Source: a virus
Lineage: Duplodnaviria; Heunggongvirae; Uroviricota; Caudoviricetes
IMG/VR virus record: IMGVR_UViG_2526164630_000037
DNA length: 37,998 bases
Strand: one strand, 5' to 3'
In this document: positions 3,001-6,000 of the stretch, in pieces
Layout of the letters: every line of letters starts with the position of its first letter
How positions within the stretch are numbered: position 1 is the stretch's first letter
Program-made: the position numbers

Positions 3001-6000
3001 CTGCTGTCTGTTTGTTTTGAACAGTAAACGTCTGTTGAGCACATCCTGTAATAAGCAGGGCCAGCGCAGTAGCGAGTAGCATTTTTTTCATGGTGTTATT
3101 CCCGATGCTTTTTGAAGTTCGCAGAATCGTATGTGTAGAAAATTAAACAAACCCTAAACAATGAGTTGAAATTTCATATTGTTAATATTTATTAATGTAT
3201 GTCAGGTGCGATGAATCGTCATTGTATTCCCGGATTAACTATGTCCACAGCCCTGACGGGGAACTTCTCTGCGGGAGTGTGCGGGGATAATCAAAAACGA
3301 TGCACACCGGGTTTTCTCATTTTTCACGAGATGGGAGCGATTTCCCGCGAAGCCGCCTGTCCGGTGCGGTGGTGGAAGAAACCGGATAAAACAACCGCAT
3401 TGTGCAAATATCGATCAAATATGGTGCTGCTGTGTGAAATCTGAAAAATCACAGCGGTCATTATGCATCAGTTTTTAACACAGGACGTCAGAACGTGACA
3501 TGGCAAAGCTGGACTGGAAAAAGCTGGAGCAGGCATTCCGACGCGAACATGCCGAAACGGGAATAACATTACTGGACTGGTGCCGGAAGAAAAAGATTAA
3601 TTACAACACCGCCAGAACCCGTATAAAAATGGGCAAAATCGATCATGAAATTGATCATAAAACCGATCATGAAATCGATCATGACATCTCAGATGAAGAA
3701 CCCTGCAATGACGCGGGTTCCGGCGATGAAAAATGCGCAAAAAACTCTGAAAAAAACTGCGCAAATTCGGCAGAAACGAAACGGATTCGTGGTTCCCGAC
3801 TTTTACCACCTTCAAACGCTTTTTCTCAGCGAAACACCCACGCCGTAAGACACCGTGGATATGCGAAGTATCTTGAGGCAGATAACCTCATGGATGATGC
3901 GTCCGACATGGTGCTGTTCGATGAACTGGTGTTCACCCGGGCCCGCGCACTTTCAGTAACTAAGGCACTTAAAGGGATGTTCGCCGACCTGGAAGAGGCA
4001 ACTGACGTGGAAACCCGTGTTGCTCTTTACGACAAAATACTCAAAGCTGAACAGGCCCTTGACCGGAATATTGCCCGTATCGAGTCAATTGAACGCTCAT
4101 TGCTGACGCTGGACGTCCTGGCTGAGACAGCACCAAAACTTCGTGCTGACCGGGAAAGAATCAACGCCGCCAGAGATAAACTCAGAGCTGAAACCGATAT
4201 TCTGACCAGCCAGCGTCGGGGCGTTGTTACGCCTGTCAGTGACATCGTGTCATCGCTGCATGAAATGAGTAATTCGGGGAGACTGGATGACATTCCGGAA
4301 GAATGAACCGCGATGTGATGAGCCGTCAGAAATGACCGAGGCTGAACAACGTCTGTTCATTATGACAAAACTGAGCAATCCCTGGTGGCGGCTCAATCAT
4401 CTCTACAAAATACAGAACGAAAAAGGTGAACTGGTCACCTTCAGAATGCGACCGGCGCAGCGCCAGTTGTTCCGGAGCATGCACAATAAAAATATTATCC
4501 TGAAAGCACGCCAGCTGGGTTTTTCCACGGCCATTGATATTTATCTTCTCGACCAGGCATTATTCATTCCGCATCTCAAATGCGGGATCGTCGCTCAGGA
4601 TAAACAGGCAGCCAGTGAAATTTTCCGCACAAAAATTGCTGTACCGTTTGATCATCTCCCTGACTGGCTGAGAGCCTCATTCACCATCGTTGAACGTCGT
4701 AGCGGTGCCAGCGGTGGCTATATCCTGTTTGGTCACGGCTCGAGTATTCAGGTGGCAACCTCATTTCGCTCAGGTACGGTGCAGCGCCTGCATATCTCAG
4801 AGCACGGCAAAATTTGCGCGAAATATCCGGCTAAGGCGAAAGAGCTGCGAACCGGTACGCTTAATGCCGTTTCTGATGAATGCATTATTTTTGATGAATC
4901 CACGGCTGAAGGCGTGGGTGGTGATTTTTACGAGATGAGTAACCGTGCACAGGAGAGCACTGCATCAGGCTTATTGCTGACGGCACAGGATTATAAATTC
5001 CATTTTTACGCCTGGTGGCAGGATCCTAAATACAGCGCCAGAGTGCCGGAAAGCGGGCTGAAGCTGTCACGGGAAAAAATGACGTATTTTTCTGCGGTTG
5101 AGAAGGCAATGAACATCACGCTTACTGATGAACAGAAGCAGTGGTACATCAATAAGGAAACTGAACAGCGTGAGGAAATGAAGCAGGAGTTTCCCTCAAC
5201 GCCACAGGAGGCGTTTCTGACGTCCGGACGACGTGTGTTCAGTGCCGAAAGTACGTTGCAGGCAGAATCATTCTGTTCGCCACCGATGATTGTTTATGAC
5301 ATTGAACCTGTTACAGGAGCGAAGACTAAAGCTCAGTCTCTGCGTGAAGGAAATAAAAACGAGTTGCAGCGGACGCTGATGAATTATCTGCTGGTATGGG
5401 AACTGCCGGATCCGGATGAAGAGTATGTTTGTGGGGCAGATACTGCCGAAGGGCTGGAGCACGGAGACCGCTCATCGCTGGATGTTGTCAAACGCAGTAA
5501 TGGCGAGCAGGTGGCTCACTGGTTCGGGCATCTCGATGCTGAACTTTTTGCTCATCTCATTTCGCAGGTCTGTCGTATGTATAACAACGCGTTTGTGGGG
5601 CCGGAGCGTAATAATCACGGACATGCAGTTATCCTGAAACTCCGGGAACTCTATCCGACACGTTATATCTACAACGAACAGCATCTTGACCAGGCATATG
5701 ACGACGATACGCCCCGCCTTGGCTGGCTGACAACCCGTCAGAGCAAACCTGTTCTGACCGAAGGAATGAAAACGCTTCTGAATAATGGAATATCAGGGAT
5801 CCGCTGGTCAGGCACATTATCGGAAATGAACACCTACGTTTATGACGCGAAAGGCTCCATGAATGCACAGGAAGGCTGCTTTGATGATCAGCTCATGAGC
5901 TACATGATTGCCCAGGAGATGCGCGCCAGAATGCCGGTGAGGGTAAAACAGAAAACGGATAAACGCAGAACCACACACTGGATGGCTCACTGATGAAAAA

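Follow-up and report, generated by a model that had tools for sequence, protein, structure and literature searches.

The 37,998-nucleotide (nt) stretch of viral DNA analysed here (hereafter the window; IMG/VR record IMGVR_UViG_2526164630_000037, Caudoviricetes) contains the small terminase gene terS and, within it, four consecutive 12-bp repeats that each carry a GATC (Table 1). A preliminary description had read these repeats as a candidate Dam-sensitive, pac-like site. The tested kilobase of the window is 99.9% identical to the Shiga toxin 2 (Stx2) phage TL-2011c and to about 220 further 933W-type Shiga toxin (Stx) phages. Its terS open reading frame (ORF; 3500-4306) matches the PHROG 370 family 'terminase small subunit' with an E-value of 3.8e-125, residues 1-268 aligning to profile positions 1-284, and is followed by the large terminase gene terL and then by a P22-like portal gene. 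The terS and terL genes overlap by 20 nt (4287-4306) in differing reading frames, and the same overlap occurs in two relatives, one from Salmonella (locus L071) and one from E. coli (locus L073).

An AlphaFold model (AF2) of TerS, built on 30 homologues, predicts an N-terminal three-helix helix-turn-helix (HTH) domain (helices at amino acids (aa) 6-20, 24-31 and 35-41; pLDDT, the confidence score of the model, ~85), a disordered stretch at aa 46-116 (pLDDT ~30-45) and a C-terminal core of long coiled-coil helices (aa 130-238). We collected 379 TerS homologues, and in the protein alignment the linker after the HTH is hypervariable across the family. Pfam searches with TerS and TerL gave no match, a PDB sequence search with TerS returned chance matches only, and a Foldseek comparison of its AF2 model with the PDB returned only generic coiled coils.

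Table 1. Features of the terS region, in window coordinates.
Feature	Position	Strand	Basis or remark
Four 12-bp repeats, YGATCA in each; proposed TerS-binding array of the pac site	3638..3685	+	
terS, small terminase subunit, 268 aa	3500..4306	+	PHROG 370; terL and portal next downstream; AF2 model
Helix-turn-helix coding region	3515..3622	+	AF2 model; homology to P1 PacA N-terminus
Helix 3 (YNTARTR), putative recognition helix	3602-3622	+	Residues 40-41 differ among hexamer classes
TGCGCA hexamer, motif of the main class	3734..3739		Encoded as Cys-Ala
Second TGCGCA hexamer	3758..3763		Alignment; in 32-nt block (AAAAACTGCGCAAATTCGGCAGAAACGAAACG) identical to TGCGCA-class E. coli L073
Lone ATCGATCA, bor-terS intergenic	3410..3417	+	Matches repeat-unit core; 83 bp upstream of terS start codon
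terL, large terminase, '933W-type headful' class	4287..5993	+	PHROG 2 and related families; class name from PMC7317114
Portal gene, P22-like	5993-8137		

Tandem Repeats Finder delimits the array at 3636-3688 (period 12, 4.4 copies, 82% matches, score 78). Its four units read, in order, ATCGATCATGAA, ATTGATCATAAA, ACCGATCATGAA and ATCGATCATGAC, with GATC starting at 3641, 3653, 3665 and 3677; the second unit contains the hexamer TGATCA and the other three CGATCA. Translation gives IDHE-IDHK-TDHE-IDHD (aa 47-62 of TerS), the first residues past the HTH and the start of the predicted disordered linker. The preliminary description was thus accurate in every detail of the array itself: its four GATC-bearing repeats, its one TGATCA, its place inside the small terminase gene and its fourfold (I/T)DH(E/K/D) peptide. 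GATC is scarce in the window as a whole, with 96 occurrences where dinucleotide-preserving shuffles lead one to expect 149 ± 11 (none of the 100 shuffles fell below the window's count), and nowhere but in the array do four GATC fall within 40 bp. When 96 sites are placed at random, at least four per 40 bp arise with P = 0.011; as all four repeats duplicate a single unit and their sites are hence not independent, this value marks the cluster as unusual, not as selected.

The array is conserved inside a hypervariable linker. Across 20 distinct four-copy alleles from the window's lineage, 0 of its 48 sites vary, vs 43 of 159 (27%) in the rest of the linker, 2 of 138 in the HTH and 17 of 459 in the C-terminal part; a synonymous ATT-to-ATC variant of unit 2 occurs in other loci. 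We found the array in 386 of 5,426 complete E. coli genomes, and 348 of the 387 matching E. coli records were at least 99% identical, which implies four copies in those records. Among the loci that we fetched, a set that includes some contigs fetched twice, four copies occurred 86 times, five copies three times, and three and seven copies once each. Copy number across related prophages, a comparison named in the preliminary description, is hence nearly always four (about 90% or more of carriers), apart from these rare 3-, 5- and 7-copy variants.

To place the array among its relatives, we gathered terS DNA from genomes, viral contigs and metagenomes, which gave 101 distinct sequences. All 101 have a hexamer array directly 3' of the DNA coding for the HTH, and they fall into three classes. 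The TGCGCA class (75 distinct sequences, helix 3 of the form xARRxIK) has 3-8 copies in three frames (330/81/27); the TTCGCA class, from Pectobacterium and Brenneria (7 distinct sequences, helix 3 SAKRYITIK), has 5 copies in two frames; and the GATCA class, which unites the window's lineage with a Salmonella prophage (19 distinct sequences, helix 3 TART(R/Q)IK), has 3-7 copies. Each motif is concentrated in the linker of its own class, TGCGCA occurring there 40.6 times per kb vs 0.42 in the flanks (~97-fold), TTCGCA 34.7 vs 0.17 (~200-fold) and GATCA 28.5 vs 0.80.

The frames in which TGCGCA is read are xxT-GCG-CAx (Ala-Gln/His), xTG-CGC-Axx (Val/Met/Leu-Arg) and TGC-GCA (Cys-Ala). Within this class, linker A[Q/H] dipeptides use GCG as their alanine codon in 335/351 cases (95%), vs 23% elsewhere in the same genes, and the wobble base before the dipeptide is T in 335/351 (95%), vs 20% elsewhere, even though nine different residues precede it. 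As both biases hold whatever the residue, selection in the TGCGCA-class arrays acts on the DNA and not on the peptide. The arrays of relatives, at the position equivalent to the window's, are hence under clear DNA-level selection. The preliminary description had allowed for selection on the DNA, the protein or both; the DNA level is now clear in the relatives, while we give a peptide-only reading little weight.

Some relatives carry arrays of unusual composition. One IMG/VR contig (L116) has a single GATCA unit (GATGATCAAAAA) amid TGCGCA units at terS nt ~160-215, alongside an ARR-type helix; this hybrid shows that single units can convert between GATCA and TGCGCA cores. The Pectobacterium/Brenneria loci (L047, L058 and others) have inverted TGCGAA on both sides of the five TTCGCA (terS nt ~105-230), with one inverted copy falling within the helix-3 coding sequence. 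In a remote homologue, 28% identical and encoded on metagenome contig Ga0307932_1000839, the linker contains five degenerate NNCGCAAA motifs, which suggests that CGCAA may be the ancestral core of the family's motif. A further locus, in E. coli GCA_053952775.1, has an identical TGCGCA-class terS followed by a 335-aa ORF and a Phage_capsid_3 gene, with no terL or portal, and may be a deleted or rearranged prophage.

The class of hexamer matches helix 3 in 101/101 distinct sequences, with no exception. In the case of Salmonella P0024 (L071, 61% identical), which combines a TART helix with the linker SDQKSDQKNDH, GATCA was predicted beforehand and then found: the array reads AGTGATCAAAAA AGTGATCAAAAA AACGATCACATT, with two TGATCA and one CGATCA, and the unit AGTGATCAAAAA is two bases off the common family unit AGTGCGCAAAAA. 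GATCA is kept here at 12-bp spacing, with the peptide shifted to SDQK/NDHI. L071 and a TGCGCA-class relative (L141) are 98% identical over nt 1-95 and then diverge only across helix 3 and the array, with the residue changes K29Q, D36N, R40T and Y41Q. Similarly, the window shows full identity to the TGCGCA-class E. coli L073 at nt 1-54 and from ~nt 270 onwards, with differences in the array and in helices 2-3. Helix 3 and the array thus appear to move together as a recombination cassette, which fits a co-adapted pair of protein and site.

The closest parallel to this arrangement is the pac site of phage P1, which spans 161 bp and comprises seven TGATCA/G hexamers and an IHF site, with cleavage regulated by methylation (PMC10028697). 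The P1 hexamers belong to the site processed by the PacA/PacB pacase, and recoding them synonymously lowered the titre ~9-fold (PMC10028697). In the annotated P1 genome, TGATCA hexamers occupy pacA codons 65-78 (HEX4), encoding M-I-I-D-H-S-N-D-Q-H-A-G-D-H, with further ones at codons 108-118, and the cleavage sites lie 275-285 nt into pacA, just downstream of the codon 65-78 hexamers; the window's array occupies terS codons 47-62. The P1 hexamer is also read in a second frame, as M-I and V-I. The two proteins share their N-terminal domain: hhalign aligns TerS aa 6-47 to PacA aa 3-44 (42 columns, E 4.4e-5), blastp of TerS against the P1 PacA N-terminus gives E 0.011, and profile searches are reciprocal, the window's TerS matching the PacA family PHROG 1711 (E 3e-5) and P1 PacA matching PHROG 370 (E 1.9e-4). 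Cronobacter phage JK004, whose PacA is 66% identical to that of P1, keeps 6/7 hexamer positions (three of HEX4 and all of HEX3), and its peptide NDQK-RDQK-KRDQ, partly at 12-bp spacing, closely resembles the Salmonella L071 array.

In both systems the site, proven in P1 and proposed for the window, thus lies within the small-terminase gene, some dozens of codons past a homologous N-terminal HTH, and is built of repeated YGATCA/TGATCA hexamers 7-15 bp apart with a Dam site in each, read as D-H and D-Q peptides. In both, the hexamers are conserved as DNA while the peptide drifts (in JK004 for P1), and both kinds of phage show headful packaging and generalized transduction and encode an adenine methyltransferase. 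However, P1 has two clusters, of four and three hexamers, flanking the IHF site and the cut, whereas the window has one strictly tandem cluster and no IHF consensus, with two TGCGCA hexamers 55-80 bp downstream instead. From the C-terminal core of TerS onwards there is no recognisable relationship to PacA, and dependence on methylation is demonstrated for P1, whereas for the window's array it would be putative. The likeness to P1 pac claimed in the preliminary description therefore holds for the homologous HTH, the HEX4-equivalent position and the YGATCA core, but not for the two-cluster layout or the IHF consensus, which were not found. By sequence comparison, the window's array matches a proven P1 pac element in motif, position and adjacent protein domain.

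Phage 933W transduces host markers (generalized transduction), and its virion DNA ends could not be sequenced, which the authors read as terminal redundancy (PMC3752737); this fits headful packaging. In addition, '933W-type headful' is a recognised class of TerL (PMC7317114). Together, these observations mean that a pac site must exist. In our judgement the four 12-bp repeats are probably the TerS recognition array of that site, where headful packaging starts. From the comparisons above we infer how TerS would bind the array and start packaging there, where the cut would fall and in which direction packaging would run. TerS would act as an oligomer, each subunit having its N-terminal HTH on a flexible linker, so that several HTH domains could bind successive YGATCA units on concatemeric phage DNA. 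The TerS bound to the array would then recruit TerL, which would cut nearby, probably downstream as in P1, and packaging would proceed towards terL and the portal gene. The binding sites would lie in the terS DNA that codes for the disordered linker, a stretch in which nearly any sequence is acceptable to the protein, and the array and the DNA-reading helix could hence travel as one specificity cassette. Metagenome contigs that end near terS were also considered as packaging ends, and dismissed as assembly breaks at mosaic boundaries.

Several points weigh against this interpretation. There is no second GATC cluster, the next GATC past the array being at 4586, ~900 bp downstream, and neither IHF consensus (WATCAANNNNTTR or WATCARNNNNTTR) is matched on either strand of 3350-3950, where a weak site is still possible. 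The homology to PacA, at only 42 columns with E about 1e-4 to 1e-5, is real but modest. BLASTP detects no similarity between the window's TerL and P1 PacB (best E 3.7), which confines the link with P1 to the N-terminal domain of TerS and the site. In the window's own class, GATCA occurs in one frame at a strict 12-bp spacing, a pattern that slippage also yields, so the argument from frame independence is borrowed from the relatives; array copy number, moreover, ranges from 3 to 7. Helix 3 lies only ~15-20 bp from the array and there are about two independent switches, so linkage alone could suffice to explain their association. Both GATCA-class lineages also have TACAACACCGCC in their helix-3 coding sequence; we therefore rejected a convergent origin of the two, and a single origin spread by recombination is likelier. 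The P1 PacA helix is of the ARR type (NTARRYLR) and nonetheless reads TGATCA, and JK004 PacA likewise has Arg-Arg-Tyr with TGATCA. There is hence no simple residue-to-base code across families, and a code in which helix residue 40 specifies the core (Arg for CG, Thr for AT) was rejected as a general rule. Finally, the literature searched yielded no mapped packaging ends or pac site for 933W-type or Stx phages.

The alternative that survives best, although we think it unlikely, is a neutral minisatellite without function as DNA, in which slippage has expanded a 12-bp unit in the coding region for a disordered linker and GATC is present only incidentally. The strict 12-bp period in a single reading frame, the existence of 3-, 5- and 7-copy variants and the predicted disorder of the array region (pLDDT ~30) are what such a process would leave. 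It fits poorly, however, with an array that is invariant in 20 alleles beside a linker with 27% variable sites, and that has four copies in about 90% or more of its carriers. Nor does it account for the clear DNA-level selection on the equivalent arrays of relatives, for the 61%-identical Salmonella homologue that holds GATCA at 12-bp spacing with different residues, or for a motif and position equal to those of a proven P1 site.

It is distinctly improbable that the hexamer arrays are nucleic-acid signals whose reader is not TerS but, for example, TerL or a host factor, or that they act at the RNA level in the terS mRNA. Frame-independent selection does show a nucleic-acid signal without naming its reader. 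However, the P1 hexamers are part of the PacA/PacB pacase site (PMC10028697), and the type of motif switches along with the adjacent TerS helix. TGCGCA and TGATCA are also palindromic, which points to duplex DNA.

We give still less credence to selection on the protein repeat (I/T)DH(E/K/D) x4, for instance as a spacer, metal-binding or patterned in its charges, that separates the HTH from the oligomerisation core. Repeats of His and Asp are able to bind divalent metals, the repeat preserves the reading frame, and L071, P1 and JK004 again show D-H and D-Q dipeptides. This recurrence, however, follows automatically when GATCA is read as GAT-CAx, and in P1 the hexamer also occurs in the other frame, as M-I and V-I. 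The Asp codons of the arrays are all GAT, vs 9 GAT and 12 GAC in the remainder of terS, and close relatives of TerS function with wholly different linkers, such as SAQK and SQIR.

An equally slight prospect is a Dam/SeqA-responsive regulatory element that is not a packaging site, in which the four hemimethylated GATC would bind SeqA and time terS/terL expression or local replication: SeqA favours closely spaced hemimethylated GATC, GATC is otherwise depleted in the window, and methyltransferases are encoded by 933W (Dam family, PF05869, E 1e-64) and TL-2011c (an MT-A70 adenine methylase), but the hexamers that relatives have in this position lack GATC, which makes the array of hexamers, and not GATC, the conserved property.

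Such an element can also be compatible with the array being a pac site, as in P1. By analogy with P1, Dam methylation or SeqA binding might modulate recognition or cutting at the window's array, which we regard as possible but on balance doubtful; the phage methyltransferases are suggestive only. Since the TGCGCA and TTCGCA of most relatives contain no GATC, control by methylation is not general to this TerS family and would at best be specific to one class. More tentatively still, 933W-type TerS and P1 PacA may belong to one wider system, in which pac is written as a hexamer array in the linker-coding DNA of terS directly after the reading helix. The array and helix would form a portable, re-programmable cassette with at least three specificities (TGCGCA, TTCGCA and GATCA), and the GATCA version, that of most short-tailed Stx phages, would be under Dam/SeqA control, tying the initiation of packaging to the replication and methylation state of the phage DNA.

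Other headful and cos phages offer partial parallels. Among P22-like phages, TerS types are exchanged together with their sites as modules between related phages. The window's phage resembles P22 and Sf6 in being headful, in its P22-like portal and in a recognition site that would be embedded in terS. The P22 pac, however, is given in a passage of PMC11260489 citing Wu et al. 2002 as a single asymmetric sequence of ~22 bp, and has no hexamer array. Nor is there any sequence relationship between P22 or Sf6 and the window's TerS, the Pfam and PDB searches having returned nothing of the kind. The pacL and pacR sites of SPP1 and the R sites of lambda cosB consist of short repeats about one helical turn apart, bound by the HTHs of oligomeric small terminases, and the window's array is likewise made of several short repeated sites at about this spacing. 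The SPP1 and lambda sites, in contrast, are mostly located beyond the coding sequence of terS or else right where it starts, their motifs and proteins are unrelated to those described here, and lambda has cos ends and is not headful.

Phages of the 933W type carry Shiga toxin genes in enterohaemorrhagic E. coli (EHEC) and transduce host DNA. A candidate site of 48 bp would make their packaging start testable, and with it the chromosomal regions prone to lateral or generalized transduction from such prophages and the gating of particle production by Dam. The natural specificity swaps, in which near-identical TerS proteins differ in one helix and the hexamer, offer an exceptionally clean means of studying DNA recognition by small terminases, a question that has long been open. 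They also suggest a rule for predicting pac in unannotated prophages, namely to scan the terS linker for hexamer arrays that are independent of reading frame.

Two other motifs lie near the array. The TGCGCA pair 55-80 bp downstream may form a second arm of the site or have been left behind at a recombination boundary. The lone ATCGATCA upstream of terS was not counted as part of the pac site, as TGCGCA-class relatives show no change to TGCGCA there; L073 has ATCAATCA at the homologous position. Elsewhere in the window, two GATC 12 bp apart at 16522-16537 (GTGATCCGCAGTCCGATCGC) have no repeat unit around them and are probably due to chance. Finally, a 45-bp unit occurs twice at 14258-14348 (86% matches, score 140); it has GGNCCN-rich sub-repeats of 9 bp and may encode a collagen-like Gly-X-Y stretch in the tail-fibre region.

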